Positions 14,643 through 63,244 are shown, counted from the stretch's first letter. The stretch: 64,000 bases of DNA from Eledone cirrhosa (GCA_964016885.1 OZ024751.1:8742001-8806000), one strand, 5' to 3'. Program-made: numbers and translations. The notes: generated from the letters alone by a model not told the origin.

Positions 14643-15971
<1,329 letters not shown>

Positions 15972-16820
15972 TTCTCCATCTCTATTAATAACAATATTCC
16001 TAAATTATTTTTTAGTGCCTTAAATAAATGCTTCCCTCCCTCACATATCTATAGTAAAATATTTAACAAACACACCATCAAATTTTCGTATTCTACATCC
16101 TCCAATATTTCCAACATCATCTCTAAACACAACAACAAAATATTAAATACTAAATCTCTTCCTTCCAATATTGAATTTCATAATAACAGTAATAGTACTC
16201 CCGACGTCATTGTAAACCCTAGGCTAACTTCTGTAAACCCAAATACAACGTCAAACACAACTTCGCTAAATGTTCATAATCCAACTCTAAATCAAGAAAC
16301 TATTATTCCTATTATTCCTATCGCAAACAACTTCTCCAATCCAATTCCTTCTATAGATAACACTAGATCACTCATTAATAATCTCTCTAATTGCAACTGC
16401 CGCATTAAAAATAAATGTCCTCTCAACAACCATTGCCTCGATAAAAACTTAATTTATGAATGTAAAATTATAACTAGCACCAATTCCTTCACCTATTTTG
16501 GCTCCACTTCCACCTCTTTTAAAGCTCGTCTCTATAATCATCATTCATCTTTCAAATACAAACTTAAAAGAACTAACACTGCTCTCTCAGAACTCATATG
16601 GTCCTTAAAAGACAAAAACATTAAATATAACATCTTTTGGAAAAAGATTTCTTCTGCATCCTCATACTTGAACAGCTCTCTATCTAAAATCTGTAATCTC
16701 TGCCTAAATGAAAAATTTACCATTATCTCTAACCTAGAATCTATAATAAATAGACGCTCAGATTTGTTTTCTATCTGCCTGCATAAATTCCATAGAACTT
16801 TTCACAAAGTATACACTTAA
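15972..16820 (+). pseudogene. 5'-truncated PLE ORF (thumb, linker, GIY-YIG; Naiad-like), 282 open codons with no start
   Basis: Manual translation: KCFPPSHIYSKIFNKHTIKFSYS...NCNCRIKNKCPLNNHCLDKNLIY..TYFGSTSTSFKARLYNH..CNLCLNEK..INRRSDLFSICLH*; absent from the ORF track. Confidence 0.88.
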
Positions 16821-17817
16821 TATTCAATTCTTTATCAATTTAGAATCTTTTCTCAAAGGCACATATACATACACCTCTTTAAAATATACCCATCTACCTT
16901 ACTTTAAAGGGCATTATACACTCTATAATACTTGTTTACTCATTACCCTCATTCTATCTTCTCGTAAAATAATAACATTTTGTTTTTGACATTTTGAATA
17001 TTCATCCACAATCATTATTATTTTTTCTCTCTATCATAAATCTTTTTAATCTCAATTTTATCCTTAATTTATTATTATTTTTTTCTCCCCATCAACGAAC
17101 TCATTATTAATACATATCAATTCAATATACAAACTTTAACTTCACATTATTTTTCTCAAATCCTTCTACACTTCTCAAATCCTTCTACCTTAACAATTTT
17201 TCTCTTCGCTAATTTTGAAATTGCCACAATACATACATTTCTTCTTTTGACGTTAGAATATTCACCCACAATTATTATTTTTTTCTCTCTATCTTCATAC
17301 ATAATTTCCCTTCGTTAATTTTCAAATTCCTTTAATTTATACATTATCTTCCAACGGTTCCCAACCTCTCTATATTAAAACAATATATCTTTTTCTCAGT
17401 TATAAAAACTATCTCTTTCTCTCTATCACCCATCTCTCCCTCTCCACCTTCACTCTCATCTCCTCCTCCCTTTTTTTCATCCTTTCCACCCCACCCTCCC
17501 TAAATAAAATATTTTTTCCTCGCACATATCCTCCCTTCGCTAATTTTCAAAATTTTTAATTTATACAGTATCTTCCAACGGTTTTCAACCCCTCTATGTA
17601 AAAAATATATCTCCTCTCAGTTATAAAAACTATCTCTTTCTCTCTATCACCCATCTCTCCCTCTCATCTCCTTCCCTTTTCATCCTTCCCCCCCCCTCTC
17701 TCTAAATAAAATATTTTTCCCAATATCACACATCAATCTAAAACCACTTTTCATATGTTGATTTAAAACTGCACTATCAACAAGTGTTTTTTTTTAGCCT
17801 TCATATCATGTTCTCCT

Positions 17818-17886
17818 GTTTTATCTGATGAAAACACAAATATTATTGCTTGATGATGTTTGTTTTTGAAATGCGCATAATAAAAT
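17818..17886 (+). ncRNA. Type I hammerhead ribozyme downstream of PLE ORF
   Basis: gttttat-CTGATGA-long stem II-GAAA-tgcgca-TA-ataaaat; palindromic atgcgcat stem III. Confidence 0.85.
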
Positions 17887-18082
17887 ATATGGAACTCCTT
17901 TAACCATCTTTTGATCTTATATTATGCATACTCCAGTCCCACAAACTGTAGAGTGCTTCTTATCCGATATCTGCATTGCTTTATTGTACTACAATAAAAC
18001 TCACCTCCTACATTATATATAAATATATATATCCTATATGTATATATCATATGTATATCATATATATATTATATATATACAT

Positions 18083-18899: not shown

Positions 18900-20945
18900 A
18901 GCTTTGTAGTTATGTAAGGGGTGTTCTCAGACGTGGGGACACCGTGTGAATAATTCATTTCTCGAGTTTAGTCAATCGCTAGTGCGTAATCTCTTTAGAA
19001 TATTTAGTCGTTTATCAATACATAGTCCACACAACGGATTTCCCCTTGCGTATAGCTTGGGCTTCGTGATGGCTTTCTATTGAATGGAGTAGTCTATACT
19101 TGAGTCTTTGAGGGACCATATGTTCAGGAAGCGTTCCTTAAATCGGCCCTCCGTCATACGCACATAGTGTTTGACCTCTTGATGTTGATTTGTTGTGTTG
19201 GAAGTGATCACCGCTTCATAAACTACAGTGGGTGTGTTGCATTGCTGTTGAAGGGGACAAGCCTCGGGCTTACGGCAAGAGCACCCTGCTGGGGTTTGCT
19301 CTTAGGGCTGTTCTTGATGTGGGCCTTCATGTTCTTAGCGCAGCATTATCCTAGTTTTACTTTGTGTCGGTTAAAATGGAGCGGTATTTATGACCTATGG
19401 GAAAGTGTCTATCTAAGAGGGCTAGACATGTTTTGCCTACATAGGTTTTAACGTTGAGTGAGAAGGGAGGAGAGACCCAGATAGTTTGTCTATTGTTAGG
19501 CTTTCTTTTCCTATTGCTGTTGTTGTTATTGGGAGAGTAAGTGATAGGTTGCGAGAAGCCGCTGTTAGCTGACGCCGTGTCATAGTAGTGGTGCTGCTCT
19601 GTCAAATATAGCCTTATTAGAGGAGAGGTTAGAGTTCTAGTACTCATATTATTTACGAAGTTTCTAAAAAACAGTGGGAAGGTGGCATGAGTCCTTGTGA
19701 ATGTAATTGAGTTTTTCGTTAAGCTTATGGACGGGTCTGCAGATATATGTGTGAATGTCTAAATTTATTTCTAAGAAATCTACGCTAGAGAGGTTGGTAG
19801 CTACCATTATCCTAAGTCCTAACTCATTAAAGGTAGAAACTAAGTCTTTTTTAAACCGGTGGAGGTCGTGACCACTTTTATGGCTCGATAAGGTCAGTCC
19901 ATCGTCACGGTAATATTCCCGTGTGAAAGTCCTGGGATCTAACACGTAATATGTCTAAAATAAATAGGCCAACCAAGTCGCATACCTCAGTACTGTCAAA
20001 CGATCCCATGGAGACATCGAACAGATCTGAAGTTGTTGACTTCTTTGCCCACGCTACCCCGTTGTTGAAGAGGAGGTTTTTCCGGCAGTGAGCGATGCTT
20101 TCCCTCTCTAAACCATGGACGGTAGTGTAAGTGGTAGTAAAGTCCAACGCTTTGTTTAACAGGGTCTCTGAGATCGACGGGTAAAAATCTACAATGTCAA
20201 ACTGTGTGAACTTCGCTTCTTTGGATTAGAAGGAGTTGAACCACTTAATTACGGAGTCACTGTTCTCCCACTGGGTTAGGTTGGACTTGATCCAAATGGT
20301 CTTAACTATGTTTCTAAGTATGGCCTTACTGACTAGTTCCATATCTGTGCGTGCCGGGTTTAATAGTCTACATGTGGGGCTAGAAGTAAAGTCTACCTTA
20401 TGATCTTTCAGGGTGAGGAACGCCTAGAGATTGTAGCTTCTTATCTACTTTAAGGGCGGCGGCAAGTTCTTTGGCTTCTGTATTTATGTCGTGCTAGGCC
20501 ATAGTGTTAGCTTTCTTATATTTGGAAGTAATAGCGTTATGGGCCAAGTGGCTGTAAGTGGTGTTGTCGACTTTGTAAATATTATTAGTTTTGTCGGAAA
20601 GAACGAAAGTGTTATTAGAAGACCTAAATTTCTTAATATCTTTCTAAGATTAGTTTGAAAGGTGTTATGGTGTTTGCAAAAGGAAATATTAGCGACTAAG
20701 TCAACAAGGTCCGCCTCGAAAGGAGCAAGTTCAGTTAACTTAGGAGGGTTGGATTTCGATTTCAGGTTGGAGGTGTTACTGGTGCCTGTAATTTTGCCGT
20801 CAAAAGCTAGGGCTAGCCATCATAAGTGTCAACGACATCTTCCGCTTTTTGTAGGAGAAGTTTTGGTTAACAGGGTTGGAGGGAGTGAGAATGTTCTTCA
20901 GGGAGTAATCCAGTTCGTATAAATCCATACTGAAGTTGATGAGAT
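18900..20945 (-). mobile_element. Decayed Naiad-like Penelope element (RT + GIY-YIG)
   Basis: FDVSMGSFDSTEVCDLVGLFIL, YRDDGL, VDFLEINLD, WVSPPFSLNVKT, CSCRKPEACPLQQQC, CGLC..LNSRNELFTRCPH. Confidence 0.88.
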
Positions 20946-25475: not shown

Positions 25476-26223
25476 ACCACATGCTCCTACATACCGGAGT
25501 GGGATGAAAACGTGCCCGTTGTGTAATAATGAGCTCTTCCATATTCTAAGCTCAAACCACCAACTACTCAACAACAAAATTGAAAGGTCAATTTTTTGCC
25601 AGCATAAACTGAAAGCGAAATTCTCACACTTCAAACCTTCAACCAAATCCTAACACTACCTATCTTTCTACCCTAAATAACAATTCTACACCCCTAAAAA
25701 TAGACTATATATGAAATTTAATACTTTCTTCCTTCATCTGTTCTCTGGTAAGACTTTCGCCTGTCCACTTCCAAATGCCTCTTAAAATTCTATCTTCCTT
25801 CTCCCTCCCTCTACTCATCACAACTTTTAGCACACATCCCTCCTCCCCCTCCCTATACAAATCCTCTCACACCACACTACCTCTTTCTCTTTCTCTCCCT
25901 TCCTCTATCCCTTTTCTCTCTCTCTCGCTCTCTCTCTTTTGCCCCTCTCTCTCTCTCTGTTCCTCTATCTTACACTACTCCCCCTTATTTCATTTCCTAA
26001 GGTCATTCCAACTTTGTATTTTGAAAATTCGGATGCCACAGTATCTTTCTTGTTTGCCTATTATAACATAGTGTAGCAATAAAGGACTGAAATTCTGATG
26101 AAACAATTGTAAATACGTGGATTAAATTCTTTTGTAATTGTTTACCTTCGTCCTATTTCTCTTCTTTGATTACACTCCTCGATTGTTCGTGTTTCCACTA
26201 CAGAATCCCTACCAACCTGTCGA

Positions 26224-28200
26224 GTCACCTTAACGTATGTTGAGAACTTTCCTCACAACTTGTTCTACCAAGCTTTGGAATACTCCTAAAAACTGAAGTA
26301 TATATATATATATATATAACACAGTCCTCTATGCTGATAAGACCTCTTCCATCTTCAGATCTCCTTAAGTAGAGTATATCGACATCACTCCTCTTGTGGA
26401 ACATGTTGTAGATAGTCAATAGCTTCCTAGTCTTCCTATCCATTTATTTTTGTTCAGCAACATTCCATCTCAGAATTCCCGCACTGTACCTAATAATAGA
26501 CTCAGCTCGGGAATTTACTGCACTGCATTCCTACTGTTCAGATGTGACTTTCGTACGCTCCTTACTCTTCTCCGATTGTATTCAGATCTTATAAATTCCT
26601 TCATTTTTTTGTTCTTGATGTCATCAGACTCCAGAATACCTAAATATTTGTATCCATCTTCAGCATCAATTTCCTTTATCATCTCACCTGTTGGTACCTG
26701 GATTCCCTTGCTTCTGCTCAATTTACCGCTCTTCATCACAAGGACTCAACACTTACCAATACCAAATTGCATACGCATATCATTCCTGAAAATACGGACA
26801 GTGTCAACAAGTACATCCATCTCATTCTCACTCTTCCCGAAGAGCTTAAGACCGTCCATGAAGAGGAGGTGATTTATGGTAAACCCTCCATTTCCCAACC
26901 TGTATCCTGCTCTCACTTTTCGCAGTACACTGGTCAGGGGCATCAAGGCAAGGACCAACAACAGAGGGGACAGACTATCTCCCTGGAAGATACCTCTCTT
27001 GATCCTCACGCCTCGTAAGGATTCTCTGCCCGATGTTAACTCGGTTTTCCAGGACTTCATACTTTTGCTCAACAACTGTCTGATGTTATCTGTCACCCTG
27101 AAGATCTCTTTTGGTTATCCAAGAATGAGGTACCATGTCAAATGCCTTTTTGTGGTCTATCCATCCCATGGTAAGACCAGTGTGTCTCCTCCTGCAATTC
27201 CTCATTACCATCTTATCAATAAGTAACTGGTCCTTTGTCCCACAGGACTTCTTTCGGCATCCTTTCTGTTCGTCCGGTAACAAGTTGTTTGTGTGGAGCT
27301 GATGGTAGATTTCCTCAGACATAATGCTTGTGAACAGTTTCCACATTACGGACATACATGTGATAGGTCTATAGTTGGTAACATCATTACCCTTGATTCG
27401 GTCCTTCATTACCAGAACTGTGGTACCTTTTGTCAACAACTCTGGTACCTCACCTGACATCAAGCAGTCATTAAACATTGTTGTCAGTTTCGGGTGGAGG
27501 GATGTTATATTTCTAATCCAATACCCCTGCACACCATCTGGGCCTGGTGATTTCCAGTTGGTTAGTTTTATGGCCTGCCCATAAAGAGTTTCAACTGTGA
27601 TATTCAAGTCAGTTTGTTGGTGTGCCTGTTCACTAATCTCCTTCTGTACTGTTTCAATCCACACTGCCTGGTCATTATGTTTAACATCCTGCTCCCATAT
27701 TCCTCTCCAGAATATTTTAGTATGTTCCGCCACAGGGATCAAGTCGTTGCCTCTTTCTTTCCCCTCAAGCTGTCCAAACAGCATATTCTGGTTGTTGTCA
27801 AACATGCGGTTCTATCTATACTGACTGACTCTGCTCTCGTATCGCCTAATTTTTGCGCTCTTTGCTACAATGCGTTGCTTCAGTTCCTCTATGATAATAT
27901 TTAGCTTTTTCCTCCTAATTTTGTACTTTATTTCCAGTCTATTTTTAGTGTCTATGTTTTTTAGTGTCCCATTCAGTAGGGATTCAAGCTTTCCAATGTC
28001 AGTTCTCATTTCCCTGATTTGACCACTCAGTCGTTTCTTCCACCAAGGCTCTGATCTTTCTTGTTTGCTGTTTCCTCTCGCTTTTATACCAAGTAATTTC
28101 CTCACCGCATTTGCTGTTGCTTTGAGGATATTGTTGCACTGGTGAAGGCTCCTCTCCTCAAGGTATGGGATGACTTTGTTTACTTTAGCTCTTGTTTCTT
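26224..28200 (-). mobile_element. R4/Dong-like RLE non-LTR retrotransposon, RT region, decayed
   Basis: NWKSPGPDG, NYRPITC, EQKGC, DHKKAFD, GIFQGDSLSPLL, HLLFMDGLK, YKYLG, GRGL. Confidence 0.9.
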
Positions 28201-34479: not shown

Positions 34480-34589
34480 ATGTATAGAAATTTCGTATTT
34501 CGAAAGAAATACGATTTTAGGAACCCGTAGCTATCTGAACCGTGGGGCTAACGCCCTCTGGTGTTATCCAGCTGAATCAAGGGGGACAA

Positions 34590-34631
34590 CCGTCTATGCA
34601 TTTCAGGCGTGACCGGCCATCGTCAGGACGA
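34590..34631 (-). ncRNA. Type I hammerhead ribozyme
   Basis: Minus strand: tcgtc-CTGACGA-t-ggc-cggtcac-gcc-t-GAAA-tgca-TA-gacgg; palindromic atgcat. Confidence 0.85.
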
Positions 34632-35097
34632 TCCCTCCCACTGCTCTCCGACTGCTGGACTTCAACACAGCCGAGAACCTATAGTTTTCTTGTCTGTGTA
34701 AATGAGGTGATTAATCCCATTTGCATATGAAGCTGCATAAGTTGGCTCAGCTTATAATAAAAAAGAAATACGATTTCGCTTCAATCAGAGCTTTATACAA
34801 TATGTATAGAAATTTCGTATTTCGAAAGAAATACGATTTTAGGAAGCCGTAGCTATGCGAACACCGAGGTGCTAACGCCCTCTGGTGTTGTCCAGCTTTA
34901 TACATATTGTTTTCCAGCTTTATACATATTGTATGAACCTATGCTTGGAGCGAAATCCAATATCTGTTCTATTATATGTTGAGCTAACTTATGCAGCTTC
35001 ATGTGCAAATGGCATTAATCACCTCATTTACACTAACGAGAAAGCTATATGTTCTCGACTGTTTTCAAGTCCAGCAGTCGCACACCAGTGGAAGGGA

Positions 35098-35139
35098 CCG
35101 TCCTGATGATGGCCAGTCAAGCCTAAAATGCATAGATGA
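35098..35139 (+). ncRNA. Hammerhead ribozyme copy with G12A substitution (probably inactive)
   Basis: ccgtc-CTGATGA-tggccagtcaagcct-AAAA-tgca-TA-gatga. Confidence 0.65.
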
Positions 35140-35175
35140 GTGTCCCCCTTGCTTCTGCTGGACAACACCATGTAC

Positions 35176-45155: not shown

Positions 45156-45205
45156 AATATATGTATATATATATGTATATATATACATATATATATGTAT
45201 GTATG

Positions 45206-45270
<65 letters not shown>

Positions 45271-45274
<4 letters not shown>

Positions 45275-47550
45275 ATAAATGCTCTGAAATAGCGATATAT
45301 ATGTGAATATAGACATAGAATATTCGAAAATATTCTGTATGTTTATAATAAACATTTTGAAGACCTAATCGCTATAGAATAGAATACGTCACGTATTACA
45401 ATTAGATTCTCGATAAAAGCAAGGGAAGTAATCTACGCGTTTCATTCTCGTTAGAAATCATCAGGACTACATATCCAGTGCTTTTATCGAGAATGACACA
45501 GCTAGAGACTTATAGAATACTTAGCTGTGTACAGGAACTGGTTTGAAAGAGCGGTTGCCGGTCCGGCAGAAATTAGAAATTGGAATAAATGCTCTGAAAT
45601 AGCGATATATATGTGAATATAGACATAGAATATTCGAAAATATTCTGTATGTTTATAATAAACATTTTGAAGACCTAATCGCTATAGAATAGAATACGTC
45701 ACGTATTACAATTAGATTCTCGATAAAAGCAAGGGAAGTAATCTACGCGTTTCATTCTCGTTAGAAATCATCAGGACTACATATCCAGTGCTTTTATCGA
45801 GAATGACACAGCTAGAGACTTATAGAATACTTAGCTGTGTACAGGAACTGGTTTGAAAGAGCGGTTGCCGGTCCGGCAGAAATTAGGAATTGGAATAAAT
45901 GCTCTGAAATAGCGATATATATGTGAATATAGACATAGAATATTCGAAAATATTCTGTATGTTTATAATAAACATTTTGAAGACCTAATCGCTATAGAAT
46001 AGAATACGTCACGTATTACAATTAGATTCTCGATAAAAGCAAGGGAAGTAATCTACGCGTTTCATTCTCGTTAGAAATCATCAGGACTACATATCCAGTG
46101 CTTTTATCGAGAATGACACAGCTAGAGACTTATAGAATACTTAGCTGTGTACAGGAACTGGTTTGAAAGAGCGGTTGCCGGTCCGGCAGAAATTAGAAAT
46201 TGGAATAAATGCTCTGAAATAGCGATATATATGTGAATATAGACATAGAATATTCGAAAATATTCTGTATGTTTATAATAAACATTTTGAAGACCTAATC
46301 GCTATAGAATAGAATACGTCACGTATTACAATTAGATTCTCGATAAAAGCAAGGGAAGTAATCTACGCGTTTCATTCTCGTTAGAAATCATCAGGACTAC
46401 ATATCCAGTGCTTTTATCGAGAATGACACAGCTAGAGACTTATAGAATACTTAGCTGTGTACAGGAACTGGTTTGAAAGAGCGGTTGCCGGTCCGGCAGA
46501 AATTAGAAATTGGAATAAATGCTCTGAAATAGCGATATATATGTGAATATAGACATAGAATATTCGAAAATATTCTGTATGTTTATAATAAACATTTTGA
46601 AGACCTAATCGCTATAGAAAAGAATACGTCACGTATTACAATTAGATTCTCGATAAAAGCAAGGGAAGTAATCTACGCGTTTCATTCTCGTTAGAAATCA
46701 TCAGGACTACATATCCAGTGCTTTTATCGAGAATGACACAGCTAGAGACTTATAGAATACTTAGCTGTGTACAGGAACTGGTTTGAAAGAGCGGTTGCCG
46801 GTCCGGCAGAAATTAGAAATTGGAATAAATGCTCTGAAATAGCGATATATATGTGAATATAGACATAGAATATTCGAAAATATTCTGTATGTTTATAATA
46901 AACATTTTGAAGACCTAATCGCTATAGAATAGAATACGTCACGTATTACAATTAGATTCTCGATAAAAGCAAGGGAAGTAATCTACGCGTTTCATTCTCG
47001 TTAGAAATCATCAGGACTACATATCCAGTGCTTTTATCGAGAATGACACAGCTAGAGACTTATAGAATACTTAGCTGTGTACAGGAACTGGTTTGAAAGA
47101 GCGGTTGCCGGTCCGGCAGAAATTAGAAATTGGAATAAATGCTCTGAAATAGCGATATATATGTGAATATAGACATAGAATATTCGAAAATATTCTGTAT
47201 GTTTATAATAAACATTTTGAAGACCTAATCGCTATAGAATAGAATACGTCACGTATTACAATTAGATTCTCGATAAAAGCAAGGGAAGTAATCTACGCGT
47301 TTCATTCTCGTTAGAAATCATCAGGACTACATATCCAGTGCTTTTATCGAGAATGACACAGCTAGAGACTTATAGAATACTTAGCTGTGTACAGGAACTG
47401 GTTTGAAAGAGCGGTTGCCGGTCCGGCAGAAATTAGAAATTGGAATAAATGCTCTGAAATAGCGATATATATGTGAATATAGACATAGAATATTCGAAAA
47501 TATTCTGTATGTTTATAATAAACATTTTGAAGACCTAATCGCTATAGAAT
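45271..47550 (-). repeat. 310-bp tandem array, left arm (7.35 units, 7 complete HHRs); retrozyme-like
   Basis: tggaataaat recurs at 45271, 45581, 45891 ... 47441. Confidence 0.97.
45406..45494 (-). ncRNA. Type I hammerhead ribozyme (first of 7 in the left arm, every 310 bp)
   Basis: Reverse complement of 47828-47916. Confidence 0.92.
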
Positions 47551-50500
47551 ATGATTTCTAACGAGAATGAAACGCGTAGATTACTTCCCTTGCTTTTATC
47601 GAGAATCTAATTGTAATACGTGACGTATTCTATTCTATAGCGATTAGGTCTTCAAAATGTTTATTATAAACATACAGAATATTTTCGAATATTCTATGTC
47701 TATATTCACATATATATCGCTATTTCAGAGCATTTATTCCAATTTCTAATTTCTGCCGGACCGGCAACCGCTCTTTCAAACCAGTTCCTGTACACAGCTA
47801 AGTATTCTATAAGTCTCTAGCTGTGTCATTCTCGATAAAAGCACTGGATATGTAGTCCTGATGATTTCTAACGAGAATGAAACGCGTAGATTACTTCCCT
47901 TGCTTTTATCGAGAATCTAATTGTAATACGTGACGTATTCTATTCTATAGCGATTAGGTCTTCAAAATGTTTATTATAAACATACAGAATATTTTCGAAT
48001 ATTCTATGTCTATATTCACATATATATCGCTATTTCAGAGCATTTATTCCAATTTCTAATTTCTGCCGGACCGGCAACCGCTCTTTCAAACCAGTTCCTG
48101 TACACAGCTAAGTATTCTATAAGTCTCTAGCTGTGTCATTCTCGATAAAAGCACTGGATATGTAGTCCTGATGATTTCTAACGAGAATGAAACGCGTAGA
48201 TTACTTCCCTTGCTTTTATCGAGAATCTAATTGTAATACGTGACGTATTCTATTCTATAGCGATTAGGTCTTCAAAATGTTTATTATAAACATACAGAAT
48301 ATTTTCGAATATTCTATGTCTATATTCACATATATATCGCTACTTCTGAGCATTTATTCCAATTTCTAATTTCTGCCGGACCGGCAACCGCTCTTTCAAA
48401 CCAGTTCCTGTACACAGCTAAGTATTCTATAAGTCTCTAGCTGTGTCATTCTCGATAAAAGCACTGGATATGTAGTCCTGATGATTTCTAACGAGAATGA
48501 AACGCGTAGATTACTTCCCTTGCTTTTATCGAGAATCTAATTGTAATACGTGACGTATTCTATTCTATAGCGATTAGGTCTTCAAAATGTTTATTATAAA
48601 CATACAGAATATTTTCGAATATTCTATGTCTATATTCACATATATATCGCTATTTCAGAGCATTTATTCCAATTTCTAATTTCTGCCGGACCGGCAACCG
48701 CTCTTTCAAACCAGTTCCTGTACACAGCTAAGTATTCTATAAGTCTCTAGCTGTGTCATTCTCGATAAAAGCACTGGATATGTAGTCCTGATGATTTCTA
48801 ACGAGAATGAAACGCGTAGATTACTTCCCTTGCTTTTATCGAGAATCTAATTGTAATACGTGACGTATTCTATTCTATAGCGATTAGGTCTTCAAAATGT
48901 TTATTATAAACATACAGAATATTTTCGAATATTCTATGTCTATATTCACATATATATCGCTATTTCAGAGCATTTATTCCAATTTCTAATTTCTGCCGGA
49001 CCGGCAACCGCTCTTTCAAACCAGTTCCTGTACACAGCTAAGTATTCTATAAGTCTCTAGCTGTGTCATTCTCGATAAAAGCACTGGATATGTAGTCCTG
49101 ATGATTTCTAACGAGAATGAAACGCGTAGATTACTTCCCTTGCTTTTATCGAGAATCTAATTGTAATACGTGACGTATTCTATTCTATAGCGATTAGGTC
49201 TTCAAAATGTTTATTATAAACATACAGAATATTTTCGAATATTCTATGTCTATATTCACATATATATCGCTATTTCAGAGCATTTATTCCAATTTCTAAT
49301 TTCTGCCGGACCGGCAACCGCTCTTTCAAACCAGTTCCTGTACACAGCTAAGTATTCTATAAGTCTCTAGCTGTGTCATTCTCGATAAAAGCACTGGATA
49401 TGTAGTCCTGATGATTTCTAACGAGAATGAAACGCGTAGATTACTTCCCTTGCTTTTATCGAGAATCTAATTGTAATACGTGACGTATTCTATTCTATAG
49501 CGATTAGGTCTTCAAAATGTTTATTATAAACATACAGAATATTTTCGAATATTCTATGTCTATATTCACATATATATCGCTATTTCAGAGCATTTATTCC
49601 AATTTCTAATTTCTGCCGGACCGGCAACCGCTCTTTCAAACCAGTTCCTGTACACAGCTAAGTATTCTATAAGTCTCTAGCTGTGTCATTCTCGATAAAA
49701 GCACTGGATATGTAGTCCTGATGATTTCTAACGAGAATGAAACGCGTAGATTACTTCCCTTGCTTTTATCGAGAATCTAATTGTAATACGTGACGTATTC
49801 TATTCTATAGCGATTAGGTCTTCAAAATGTTTATTATAAACATACAGAATATTTTCGAATATTCTATGTCTATATTCACATATATATCGCTATTTCAGAG
49901 CATTTATTCCAATTTCTAATTTCTGCCGGACCGGCAACCGCTCTTTCAAACCAGTTCCTGTACACAGCTAAGTATTCTATAAGTCTCTAGCTGTGTCATT
50001 CTCGATAAAAGCACTGGATATGTAGTCCTGATGATTTCTAACGAGAATGAAACGCGTAGATTACTTCCCTTGCTTTTATCGAGAATCTAATTGTAATACG
50101 TGACGTATTCTATTCTATAGCGATTAGGTCTTCAAAATGTTTATTATAAACATACAGAATATTTTCGAATATTCTATGTCTATATTCACATATATATCGC
50201 TATTTCAGAGCATTTATTCCAATTTCTAATTTCTGCCGGACCGGCAACCGCTCTTTCAAACCAGTTCCTGTACACAGCTAAGTATTCTATAAGTCTCTAG
50301 CTGTGTCATTCTCGATAAAAGCACTGGATATGTAGTCCTGATGATTTCTAACGAGAATGAAACGCGTAGATTACTTCCCTTGCTTTTATCGAGAATCTAA
50401 TTGTAATACGTGACGTATTCTATTCTATAGCGATTAGGTCTTCAAAATGTTTATTATAAACATACAGAATATTTTCGAATATTCTATGTCTATATTCACA

Positions 50501-52352
50501 TATATATCGCTATTTCAGAGCATTTATTCCAATTTCTAATTTCTGCCGGACCGGCAACCGCTCTTTCAAACCAGTTCCTGTACACAGCTAAGTATTCTAT
50601 AAGTCTCTAGCTGTGTCATTCTCGATAAAAGCACTGGATATGTAGTCCTGATGATTTCTAACGAGAATGAAACGCGTAGATTACTTCCCTTGCTTTTATC
50701 GAGAATCTAATTGTAATACGTGACGTATTCTATTCTATAGCGATTAGGTCTTCAAAATGTTTATTATAAACATACAGAATATTTTCGAATATTCTATGTC
50801 TATATTCACATATATATCGCTATTTCAGAGCATTTATTCCAATTTCTAATTTCTGCCGGACCGGCAACCGCTCTTTCAAACCAGTTCCTGTACACAGCTA
50901 AGTATTCTATAAGTCTCTAGCTGTGTCATTCTCGATAAAAGCACTGGATATGTAGTCCTGATGATTTCTAACGAGAATGAAACGCGTAGATTACTTCCCT
51001 TGCTTTTATCGAGAATCTAATTGTAATACGTGACGTATTCTATTCTATAGCGATTAGGTCTTCAAAATGTTTATTATAAACATACAGAATATTTTCGAAT
51101 ATTCTATGTCTATATTCACATATATATCGCTATTTCAGAGCATTTATTCCAATTTCTAATTTCTGCCGGACCGGCAACCGCTCTTTCAAACCAGTTCCTG
51201 TACACAGCTAAGTATTCTATAAGTCTCTAGCTGTGTCATTCTCGATAAAAGCACTGGATATGTAGTCCTGATGATTTCTAACGAGAATGAAACGCGTAGA
51301 TTACTTCCCTTGCTTTTATCGAGAATCTAATTGTAATACGTGACGTATTCTATTCTATAGCGATTAGGTCTTCAAAATGTTTATTATAAACATACAGAAT
51401 ATTTTCGAATATTCTATGTCTATATTCACATATATATCGCTATTTCAGAGCATTTATTCCAATTTCTAATTTCTGCCGGACCGGCAACCGCTCTTTCAAA
51501 CCAGTTCCTGTACACAGCTAAGTATTCTATAAGTCTCTAGCTGTGTCATTCTCGATAAAAGCACTGGATATGTAGTCCTGATGATTTCTAACGAGAATGA
51601 AACGCGTAGATTACTTCCCTTGCTTTTATCGAGAATCTAATTGTAATACGTGACGTATTCTATTCTATAGCGATTAGGTCTTCAAAATGTTTATTATAAA
51701 CATACAGAATATTTTCGAATATTCTATGTCTATATTCACATATATATCGCTATTTCAGAGCATTTATTCCAATTTCTAATTTCTGCCGGACCGGCAAGCG
51801 CTCTTTCAAACCAGTTCCTGTACACAGCTAAGTATTCTATAAGTCTCTAGCTGTGTCATTCTCGATAAAAGCACTGGATATGTAGTCCTGATGATTTCTA
51901 ACGAGAATGAAACGCGTAGATTACTTCCCTTGCTTTTATCGAGAATCTAATTGTAATACGTGACGTATTCTATTTTATAGCGATTAGGTCTTCAAAATGT
52001 TTATTATAAACATACAGAATATTTTCGAATATTCTATGTCTATATTCACATATATATCGCTATTTCAGAGCATTTATTCCAATTTCTAATTTCTGCCGGA
52101 CCGGCAACCGCTCTTTCAAACCAGTTCCTGTACACAGCTAAGTATTCTATAAGTCTCTAGCTGTGTCATTCTCGATAAAAGCACTGGATATGTAGTCCTG
52201 ATGATTTCTAACGAGAATGAAACGCGTAGATTACTTCCCTTGCTTTTATCGAGAATCTAATTGTAATACGTGACGTATTCTATTCTATAGCGATTAGGTC
52301 TTCAAAATGTTTATTATAAACATACAGAATATTTTCGAATATTCTATGTCTA

Positions 52353-52356
<4 letters not shown>
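47551..52356 (+). repeat. 310-bp tandem array, inverted right arm (15.5 units, 15 complete HHRs plus 1 truncated)
   Basis: atgatttcta recurs at 47551, 47861 ... 52201; ends in (TA)n. Confidence 0.97.
47828..47916 (+). ncRNA. Type I hammerhead ribozyme (first complete of 15 in the right arm); predicted cleavage after A47888 (GUA)
   Basis: attctcgataaaagca..gtagtc-CTGATGA-t-ttct-aacg-agaa-t-GAAA-cgcg-TA-gattac..tgcttttatcgagaat; perfect 16-bp distal stem I; palindromic acgcgt. Confidence 0.93.
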
Positions 52357-52415
<59 letters not shown>

Positions 52416-60444: not shown

Positions 60445-60885
60445 AATAATGGCTTCTTTTATAAGCACAAGGCCAGCAATCTCGGGGATGGGGAAAAACG
60501 ATTAAATCGACCCCAGTGCTGGACTTGTGCTTTACTTTATCGACCCCGTAAGGATGAATGGCAAAGCTAACCTCGGTGGCATTTGAACTCAGACCGTAAA
60601 GGACCGTAACTCGATGCTGCAAAGCATGGTGTCCGACTCTCTACCGATACTGCCAATCCACCGCCATAATAATAATAATTGTTTCTACGCTAGGAACAAG
60701 GCCAGCAAATACCCAGTGCATTACTGGTACTTTATTTTATCGACCCCGTAAGGATGATAGGCAAAGTCAACCTCGGCGGGATTTAATAATAATAATAATA
60801 ATTGTTTCTACTTTAGGCACACGGCAAGCAATTACTCAGTGTATTACTGGTACTTTATTTTATCGACCCCGTAAGGATGAAAGGC

Positions 60886-60886
<1 letters not shown>
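60445..60886 (-). mobile_element. Three stacked SINE copies (one full, two 5'-truncated) separated by (TAA)n
   Basis: Reverse complement of the 12657-12845 family. Confidence 0.85.
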
Positions 60887-60925
<39 letters not shown>

Positions 60926-60926
<1 letters not shown>

Positions 60927-63244
60927 GCCAGAAAAGATACCATCATGGCTAGTTAACGGCATTACATTCCTGCTTCCGAAGAATGATGAGACAAACAATC
61001 CCAAAAATTACAGACCGATAACTTGCTTGACCACAACGTATAACATTTTAACATACGTCCTAACTGAGTATACATATGACCACCTGATAACAAATGACCT
61101 ATTTCTCATTGAGCAGAAAGGGTGTAAAAGAGGCTCACATGGCTGTAAGGATCAGCTTTTGGTTAACAAAATGATACTGGAAGATTGTCATAATAGACAC
61201 AAAAATCTATCAATTGCTTGGATAGATTATAAAAAAGCATTCGATAGTTTGTCACACAGTTGGATTGAAAAATGTTTAGAGATTTTCAAAATATCTCCCG
61301 TTGCAGGAGGTTTTTGTCATTCAGTATGAAGACATGGAAAACGACACTCCTTTCGAATAGTGAAACAAAATCACTGGAAGCTGGAGAAGTTAATATTAAT
61401 TGTGGAATTTTTCAGGGTGACTCTTTATCGCTGCTTTTATTCTGCATCGCACTTATACCATTAAGTAAAATGCTCAATGAATCAAAACATGGAGATAAAG
61501 TCTATGACAAAACCATTAATCACTTGTTCTACATGGATGACCTGAAACTATTTGCAAAAAATGATGAACAATTGCAAGGGCTATTATCCACTGTGGAGCA
61601 GTTCAGTGATGACATTAAAATGGAGTTTGGACTAGATAAATGCGCCAAAGCAACGTTCACCAGAGGAAAGCTGCTGAAAAGTTCAGACATTAATCTTGAT
61701 CGAGGGAATGTGATAAGAGAACTTGATCAAGAGGAAACTTACAAATATCTAGGTGTTTGTGAAGGAGACGGAATCAAGCACTCGACAATGAGGGAAAGGA
61801 TAAGGAGGGAATGTAACCGCAGAGTGAGAGCAATCTTAAGAACAGAATTGAATGCAAGGAATAGGATCGATGCCATACACACGCTTGCCATACCAGTAGT
61901 ATCCTACAGTTACAATGTCATCAACTGGTCAAGCACAGAGATCCGTAGGCTCGATAAAAAAATTCGAAAATTCTTAACCATGCATAGAATGCATCACCCT
62001 AATGCAGATATAGATAGAATATATCTCCCTAGGAAAGGAAGAGGACGTGGGTTAATCCAGTTAGACATTGCGTTGAAAACTGCAACAATTGGATTATCTA
62101 CATATCAAAGGGAATCACATAATTGGATGATCAAACTCGTTTTGAAACACGAACGCATCAAAAGAACATACTCCATTACAAAAGATGCACAAAGATACAG
62201 TAATGGACTACACATTTCAGAAGTCCCATTTACTACTGAAATAAAAAACACAGAAAAAGCAAAGCAGGTAAAAGTAACTGCAAAGAACGAACTCCTACAG
62301 AAACTGGCTTAGAAATGGCAAGAAAAGCCTCTGTATGGAAAATACCCAGAACGAACTAACAATCCTGATGTTGACAAAACTTTAACCCATCAGTGGTTGG
62401 CATCCTCTGGACTGAAATCGGAGACTGAAGGACTGATTATATCAGCACAAGATCAGTGTCTGCCAACAAAAAATTATCAAGCCAACATAATAAAAAATGG
62501 ATGCAACCCATTATGCCGTGTATGTAAAAAACAACCAGAGACCATTGATCATATAATTTCAATGGTCAGTCCTATAGCTCCAACAGAATACCTAAACAGG
62601 CATGACAGAGCTGCACAATACATACATTGGATAATGTGTAAGCATTTTGACCTGCCCCATCAAAAGTATTGGTGGGAGCATCAACCACCTCCCATACTTG
62701 AAAAATATCACATCTCAATCTTGTGGAACTTTAGCATCCAAACAGACCGAAAAATAGATGCAAATAGACCTGATATAATATTGAAGGACTTTAAAAAGAG
62801 GGTATGCCTGCTAATTGATATTTCCGTTCCAATAGACAAGAATGTATCTATAAAAACATTTGAAAAATTGAGCAAGTATAAGGACCTGGAGATAGAAATT
62901 GGAAAAATATGGAAATTGAGAACTAAAACAATACCAGTGGTTGTAGGTGCTCTAGGAATGATTCCTAATGGGTCTAATGATTACTTATCGCAAATCCCAG
63001 GAAACCCGCGTATAGGAGAAATACAAAAGATAGTACTAATGGGAACTGCCCATATACTAAGGAAGATTCTGTCAATATAAGTACATCACAAGTCTAAACA
63101 CCTAAAGATGCATGTGTGAGTATGTATGTTCTTTCTTGAACATGGCGGACCTTGTTGTCTCTTGAGGTCACTGGTTGTGACTTGGTGATAACTCGTATGA
63201 ACATAAACCAAGATAAATGCAACTGTAATAATAATAATAATAAT
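60926..63244 (+). mobile_element. 5'-truncated R4/Dong-like LINE (RT, zinc knuckle, RLE) with a frameshift and a stop codon, flanked by (TAA)n
   Basis: NYRPITCL, DYKKAFD, GIFQGDSLS, FYMDDLK, YKYLG, AQDQ, CRVC..H, NRPD..IDISVP; ORF ends at 63080. Confidence 0.93.

Follow-up and report, generated by a model that had tools for sequence, protein, structure and literature searches.

How a non-coding repeat that bears a ribozyme comes to stand as a long array inside a microsatellite is the question raised by a locus of Eledone cirrhosa, analysed here as a window of 64,000 nucleotides (GCA_964016885.1 OZ024751.1:8742001-8806000). For the return of animal retrozymes to the genome, published work has so far only proposed PLE helpers and circular templates, and PLE transposition itself is understood only in part. 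The array in the window is probably one insertion of a young, protein-free non-LTR retrozyme, which a borrowed PLE enzyme would have copied into a TA repeat, most likely from a 310-nt circular RNA.

The array and its predicted hammerhead ribozyme

The array consists of 22.9 copies of a 310-bp unit, arranged as two divergent arms inside (TA)n. TRF reported the 310-bp period in two stretches, with 7.4 copies at 45269-47551 and 15.5 at 47551-52367 (99% matches), in agreement with the roughly 23 near-identical units of this size that an earlier note on this DNA had described. The same note had read the repeats as one 7-kb array; the repeats are there, but not as a single tandem, as the two arms, with the ribozyme on the minus strand in the left one and on the plus strand in the right one, are inverted and meet at 47551. 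With unit position 1 set at window position 47889, directly 3' of the predicted cut, the features are as follows.

45157..45270, no strand: (TA)n-rich microsatellite, left side of the target
45269..47551, minus strand: left arm, 7.36 units, of which 7 hammerhead cores are intact; it ends outward (RNA 3') at unit position 165 (site B) and inward at 53
45269..45305, minus strand: "tail", unit positions 129-165, at the left outer end only, between the two inferred reverse-transcription start sites
47550..47552, no strand: inversion junction of the arms, with an overlap of 1 nt
47551..52356, plus strand: right arm, 15.5 units, of which 15 hammerhead cores are intact; it ends inward at unit position 283 (in the core) and outward at 128 (site A)
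47828..47916, plus strand: first complete type I hammerhead by motif anatomy, recurring each 310 bp
47889..48198, plus strand: predicted cleaved monomer, 310 nt, 34.5% GC
52351..52411, no strand: (TA)n microsatellite, right side of the target

Base-by-base comparison showed that the array contains exactly six substitutions (45887, 46620, 48343, 48347, 51798, and 51975), so that the approximately six listed by eye were the only ones. The array is also without ORFs, as had been claimed: none of at least 120 aa overlapped it, and the RT and GIY-YIG ORF of an autonomous PLE is accordingly absent. At 310 bp and 34.5% GC, the unit falls within the range of non-LTR retrozymes (150-450 bp, <50% GC). 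The RNA-sense 3' ends of both arms point outward into (TA)n, the right arm passing at its outer end into TA that resembles unit positions 130-139, and no target-site duplication was readable inside the TA flanks. The intact cores number 22 (7 in the left arm on the minus strand and 15 in the right arm on the plus strand), because the first unit of the right arm begins within the core. Metazoan non-LTR retrozymes are recognised by a type I hammerhead in each unit, with at least two complete motifs in succession, and by motif anatomy the array is of this kind.

The anatomy given in the earlier note was found to be present. In the first complete hammerhead, stem I has a distal part of 16 bp (47828-47843/47901-47916) and a proximal part of 6 bp (47852-47857/47889-47894); the core is formed by CUGAUGA (47858-47864) and GAAA (47879-47882) with a GUA site; stem II (47865-47878) has 4 bp over a U-U mismatch at its base; and stem III is the palindrome ACGCGU (47882-47887), with the predicted cut after A47888. 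In the predicted fold, the pair probabilities of stem I were mostly >0.95 (0.5-0.9 at its ends) and stem II was weak (approximately 0.15), with a z score of about -3.9 for the monomer against dinucleotide shuffles and a computed duplex energy of -7.5 kcal/mol for stem III. The Infernal/Rfam scan that the earlier note had proposed gave no hammerhead: the whole window had no match at the gathering score, and at E<=10 there were six weak unrelated matches. Because Rfam detects no hammerhead family, the ribozyme is identified here by its motif anatomy and by the selection test given below. The exact 31-nt core occurs 4,226 times in the genome and its reversed control 0 times, which is not explained by chance.

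The canonical metazoan type I hammerhead has a helix I of 6 bp, a helix II of 4 bp, and a short palindromic helix III, while the min-HHR of PLE type has a helix II of 7-8 bp, a helix I of 4-5 bp, and an extra nucleotide before helix II (PMC4209133). The helices of the window hammerhead measure 4-5 bp (helix II) and 6 bp plus 16 bp (helix I). Judged by these predicted helices, the ribozyme belongs to the canonical type I of metazoans, with a U-U at the base of helix II, and not to the minimal PLE type, so that its earlier likening to a minimal type I hammerhead must be given up.

A dispersed family with a two-ended footprint

Across the 3.0-Gb genome, a looser pattern detected 14,242 hammerhead cores (controls, 0), corresponding to approximately 4.4 Mb, and a pattern for the A end had 1,353 matches (control, 18). 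Capture-recapture with the A-end and B-end lists of the first 97.5 Mb of contig C1, with input counts made by hand, gave an estimate of approximately 1,950 insertions with about 7 cores each. With 63 dispersed loci within these 97.5 Mb alone, the element is, as first supposed, a young dispersed retrozyme-like element and not a single-locus satellite. The arms run straight into TA with no LTR, the element is multi-copy and dispersed, and together with the non-coding unit of 150-450 bp and the type I hammerhead, this places it in the non-LTR retrozyme class, as the earlier note had it.

We analysed 91 insertions including that of the window, all from the first 142 Mb of C1, after one stretch without a copy and one duplicate had been removed and two had been merged; the two copies of locus L065 are probably one duplicated event. 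Private changes amounted to 0.44 per kb, a rate that includes assembly errors. If the host is octopus-like and a divergence of 0.09 is taken as 25 My (PMC13282606), the insertions are approximately 0.1 My old at most. Among public sequencing runs, a unit-length contig identical to the window consensus was found in three and the Hydra PLE was clear in one only; the identical units may come from relatives, trace DNA, or horizontal spread, which are not separable here. No RNA run was among those listed with the unit, which says nothing either way about expression. The study behind the best unit-bearing run also includes a Hi-C run; it had 0 reads on the unit and only 8 partial reads on the Hydra PLE, and provided no test.

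Two divergent arms were present in 78 of the 91 insertions, and all 78 had one end of each type (42 AB and 36 BA, none AA or BB). Site A lies at unit positions 127-139 and site B at 163-172 (one older copy aligned to 156), approximately 35 nt apart; in 48 of the 78 insertions (counted by hand), the second end was unknown at fetching, and all 48 were A/B, while the other 30 were chosen with both ends listed. The inverted arm with a tail of 30-40 nt at one end, as in PLE insertions, thus occurs in 78/78 two-armed insertions. The fixed ends always point outward in the ribozyme sense, and 148/156 outer ends run into TA, in keeping with the (TA)n microsatellite targeting of PLE-mobilised elements, although most loci were selected by one TA-containing end. 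The two arms of an insertion differ in length and junction. Arm lengths had a mean of 5.0 units (approximately 1.5 kb), reached 45 units, fitted an exponential distribution (KS p=0.19), and were only weakly correlated within insertions (rho 0.24). The inner ends were uniform over the unit (chi2 p=0.52). At blunt-joined junctions, which have no inserted bases, an overlap of at least 2 nt was seen in 33/54, compared with 18% by chance, and 20/74 junctions had inserted bases. Shared descent was rejected as the source of the junction common to loci L046 and L114, which is explained by a 16-bp inverted repeat and whose haplotypes differ.

Substitutions that damage the core or helices were seen in 0/33 of the changes fixed within an insertion and in 19/93 of those confined to a single unit (Fisher p=0.003; random expectation, 19%). 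Pairing was kept in 7/7 fixed helix substitutions, five of them as G-U wobbles that are functional only on the ribozyme strand, and the fixed change 287T>A restores a pair at the base of stem II. Purifying selection on the ribozyme fold at the RNA level is supported by these data. When polarised with an older subfamily, A>G accounted for 10/26 fixed and 5/90 private changes (8/26 fixed when unpolarised), an excess that fits wobble tolerance or A-to-I RNA editing, the two not being separable here.

Together, the footprint and selection data largely refute an origin at the DNA level, that is, an ordinary satellite, a Helitron-like or extrachromosomal-circle reinsertion, or an assembly artefact in which the hammerhead is a passenger. 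The missing Rfam match would agree with such an origin, and long-read fold-back artefacts can create inverted arrays; however, the 63 dispersed loci, the A and B ends that are fixed and always outward in the ribozyme sense, the arms unlike in length and junction, and the strand-specific, wobble-preserving selection leave it only the slightest probability.

The probable RNA template and helper enzyme

Among 80 insertions of at least 2 units, we found 32 haplotypes, each of them fixed or absent from at most one unit across both arms. Because they are fixed through both arms, a bottleneck of one unit followed by re-multimerisation is indicated. The linear cleaved monomer is ruled out as the template, because the inner ends are uniform, only 2/150 of them lie within 5 nt of the cut site, and 146/156 arms cross the cut. 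The arrays therefore look as if they were made at insertion on an endless template.

Growth after insertion, by contrast, would have short PLE-type insertions of one to two units enlarged by unequal crossover or by slippage, as suggested in the Discussion of Li et al. 2026 (bioRxiv 2026.07.22.740005). Later tandem expansion is visible as repeating variant blocks in the long arms of L052, L055, L056, and L093; however, as a general explanation, it would need independent expansion of both arms at nearly all of the approximately 1,950 young loci (0.44 private changes per kb). Moreover, most arms have no variants common to their units, and the exponential lengths of the two arms show little correlation (rho 0.24), so that we regard it as distinctly improbable.

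More weight, although still an unlikely status, is given to a PLE two-ended insertion whose main template was a long uncleaved multimer, either a transcript of a parent array or a multimeric product of RNA replication, with circles rare or only seeding the haplotypes. Non-fixed variants occur in both arms at six loci, in equal register from the outer ends in L076, L100, and L118 and with shifted register in L055, L083, and L091, and in L118 a change from one haplotype to another after two units is seen in both arms. Because a single monomer circle cannot yield non-fixed variants in both arms, multimeric or switched templates do occur. In vitro, the anole PLE uses unprocessed RNA and inserts without ribozyme cleavage (PMC11167929), and multimers accumulate from axolotl retrozymes (PMC7229834). 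If all templates were linear and parents as mutated as their copies, approximately 24 cases with both-arm variants would be expected, an expectation that fails if the private changes are mostly assembly errors rather than real and inherited. Against uncleaved templates, a model of read-through in transcripts of typical arrays predicted that 12-100% of arms would run into the parent's junction, whereas extra segments were seen in 3/78 insertions, setting the observed run-through at no more than 3/78. No junction was common to same-haplotype loci elsewhere among the analysed insertions, save in the L065 duplicate. In addition, an average of about 7 cores per insertion leaves little space in the assembly for many giant master arrays, and multimers alone cannot fix 32 haplotypes across whole arrays.

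A circular RNA would account for the exponential arm lengths, the evenly spread inner ends, the rarity of run-through, and the one-unit bottleneck. Given a PLE helper, we favour with some confidence a circle as the main template; multimeric or mixed templates likely gave rise to a minority of insertions, and later expansion affected some long arms. The recent rolling-circle cDNA insertion suggested by the earlier note is borne out in its youth and its signs of an endless template; it needs amending in that two cDNAs from two target ends are indicated and that at least six loci point to multimers.

The helper itself is very probably a PLE, because the two-armed, two-ended footprint and the tail match described PLE insertions and protein behaviour. 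PLE insertions are described as lying in TA targets, with an inverted 5'-truncated arm and a tail of 30-40 bp on one side only (Craig et al. 2021, PMC8557442), and the purified anole PLE protein extends both target strands, beginning internally on the RNA at two positions between which the tail lies (Frangieh et al. 2024, PMC11167929).

Young PLEs with intact ORFs, of the Hydra and Neptune types, are present in the genome. A young Hydra-clade PLE (L152) has an 830 aa frame with RWR, DKT, and CxCx5C motifs as in PMC8557442, and its insertions are also two-armed and unequal-ended, with ends at approximately +70 and +212 from its own cut. It was rejected as the helper on account of these differing ends and of an alignment with the unit that was not above shuffles; an 11-nt word is common to both but lies away from the end of that PLE. 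A young Neptune-type PLE (L232), with an 823-aa frame and a tail of approximately 37 nt in two copies, was likewise rejected: its terminal ends were of one type in 17/17, almost always A-ended, and without homology to the unit. No PLE sequence homologous to the unit, pLTR included, was found in the two young families examined or in the 1.37 Mb of DNA fetched from the 3-Gb genome.

Hammerheads with the ACGCGU palindrome and another stem II gave 39 matches, against 25 in the control, and among the 30 of these that were fetched there was a single weak Hydra-like fragment, with nothing convincing as a PLE ORF within 1.5 kb. The adjacency of a retrozyme and a Neptune element at L051 was discarded as a chimera, as an assembly gap splits the neighbours. 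Sister non-coding repeats share approximately 80% identity with the unit over its 68-212 region and have different ribozymes; because this region is kept across the sister repeats, it is likely a protein-binding module, as far as sequence conservation indicates.

The favoured sequence of events, with a PLE helper and mostly circular templates, would be as follows. Arrays would be transcribed, and neighbouring hammerheads, paired via ACGCGU, would cleave in dimeric form after unit position 310. The monomers would be ligated into circles, by analogy with coral, mussel, and axolotl retrozymes. A PLE RT/GIY-YIG protein would then cut (TA)n, and both DNA ends would serve as primers for reverse transcription from within the RNA, the first starting at site A (127-139), aided by AU-repeat pairing, and the other at site B (163-172) with almost no pairing; the two fixed ends, one per arm, are the observed part of this step. 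Each reverse transcriptase would circle its template until a random drop-off, for which the exponential arm lengths (mean 5 units) and evenly spread inner ends are on record. Finally, the two cDNA 3' ends would join by microhomology, which is in excess at the junctions, and then fill each other in.

A bolder proposal, which we offer tentatively and would not yet expect to hold, is that the approximately 2,000 insertions record double rolling-circle reverse transcription, in which a dimeric Penelope enzyme would use both cut TA ends as primers, at two sites 35 nt apart, on a ribozyme-made, ADAR-edited 310-nt circle that is copied repeatedly and evolves as an RNA-level replicon, with edited variants written back as whole arrays. 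The identical units in runs labelled as other organisms might then mark recent interspecies spread.

The family offers a minimal substrate of 310 nt whose two start sites are mapped and whose target is known, together with a measured run length of approximately 1.5 kb for each arm and recent events in the thousands. These properties make the choice between circle and multimer, the order of priming, and the need for cleavage testable in vitro. The family would also show a route by which satellite-like tandem arrays arise whole at insertion.

Comparison with known retrozymes and PLEs

For animal retrozymes, Cervera and de la Pena proposed in 2020 (PMC7229834) a cycle from circle to tandem cDNA, probably helped by PLEs, and they reported that the axolotl hammerheads cut better as dimers. 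Li, Clavereau and Pollet 2026 tied retrozymes to PLE pLTRs and attributed arrays to local amplification, citing unequal crossover (bioRxiv 10.64898/2026.07.22.740005); of nine Xenopus retrozyme dimers in that study, only one cleaved in vitro. According to the available text of a review, retrozyme repeats show no motif pointing to a helper (PMC7761336), and ribozymes are not mentioned in the available text of the octopus repeat annotation.

The Eledone cirrhosa family resembles metazoan non-LTR retrozymes in its tandem non-coding unit with one type I hammerhead each, its self-paired fold, its thousands of copies, and the PLEs in its genome. In detail, axolotl HHR_Amex1 has a comparable helix III of one pair plus a palindromic tetraloop, and HHR_Amex2 has a U-U at the base of helix II. 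Target-site duplications of metazoan non-LTR retrozymes are >4 bp when present. Xenopus retrozymes have PLE pLTR homology, whereas none was found for the Eledone cirrhosa unit in the families and DNA compared here. A further difference is the pair of inverted arms, each with its fixed end in (TA)n, which is absent from the available text of PMC7229834 and bioRxiv 2026.07.22.740005.

With EN+ PLEs (Hydra/Neptune/Naiad), the family shares the inverted 5'-truncated arm, the one-end tail of 30-40 nt, the TA targets, and two internal starts downstream of the hammerhead cut; it differs in that it has no ORF, the unit is the whole element, and the arms reach 45 units. The anole PLE starts without homology, whereas site A can pair with the target. 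In L1 twin priming, two target ends prime one RNA, giving an inversion with microhomology; here, each priming site has a fixed place in the unit, the inner ends fall independently of both, and there is no poly(A). Strict L1-type twin priming was rejected because the inner ends are uniform. No report of a two-armed A/B footprint for retrozymes was found in the retrozyme literature searched, supplements being outside this scope. The class and the circle/PLE model are already in print, and the two-armed A/B footprint for retrozymes appears to be the new part.

A possible shared module and the arms of the retrozyme

Several loci fetched from the same genome contained sister repeats of the 310-bp unit:

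L245 5213–5630: sister repeat
L033 4816–5152: sister repeat
L174, L175 and L193: sister repeats

Some of these shared approximately 80% identity with the unit over its region 68–212, and others shared 70–83% over 53–148. Despite this common region, their hammerheads differed from that of the unit, suggesting that region 68–212 is a portable module for recognition by the reverse transcriptase (RT).

Among the 13 single-armed retrozyme insertions, the outer end was site A (unit positions 127–139) in 10 and site B (163–172) in 3, one of which adjoins an assembly gap. These counts, drawn from a sampling biased toward A, hint that A-priming precedes B-priming. In the insertion at L056 (2099–2370), the inversion junction holds 272 captured foreign bases, for which no match was found in the remaining fetched DNA. 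At L118, the last two units of each arm carry one haplotype and the units before them a different one; on this pattern, the template was either mosaic or switched in a coordinated way.

The unit in public sequencing runs

Between 59 and 91% of the words of the unit were present in 20 public runs (X1–X20; 17 studies, 18 organism codes), which relatives, horizontal spread, or traces of host DNA could explain. In X1, X2, and X6 alike, a contig of unit length matched the window consensus exactly. The Hydra-type Penelope-like element (PLE) was also present in X1, but not clearly in X2 or X6.

Penelope-like elements and other hammerheads

Young PLE families were found elsewhere in the genome:

L152 617–3106 and 6848–6980: young, intact Hydra-clade PLE
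L232, and L051 1782–4567: young C-rich Neptune-type PLE with a CX4CxxC linker

The Hydra-clade element has an 830-aa reading frame, a 6.7-kb tandem unit rich in microsatellite, and a hammerhead whose stem II region spans approximately 115 nt, and its endonuclease was 100% identical in 150 of the 150 copies scored. The Neptune-type element targets TA, yet is almost always single-ended.

The window itself contained the following:

15970–17900 (+): Hydra-type PLE 3′ relic, then a hammerhead
18930–20600 (−), 25480–25640 (+), 27089–27811 (−), and 61269–62309 (+): further Hydra-type PLE relics and two ORFs matching Pfam RVT_1
34626 (−): hammerhead core of a second element
near 35103 (+): degenerate hammerhead core of the same element

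The hammerhead following the first relic (at 17825) has a long stem II and a palindromic stem III, and the same hammerhead occurs in several fetched loci. The second element (34480–35170) lies within TA and is unrelated to the 310-bp unit; like the retrozyme array, it is apparently two-armed. A short repeat (60666–60926), on which the description of the host as octopus-like partly rests, ends in (AAT)n and may resemble an octopus SINE.
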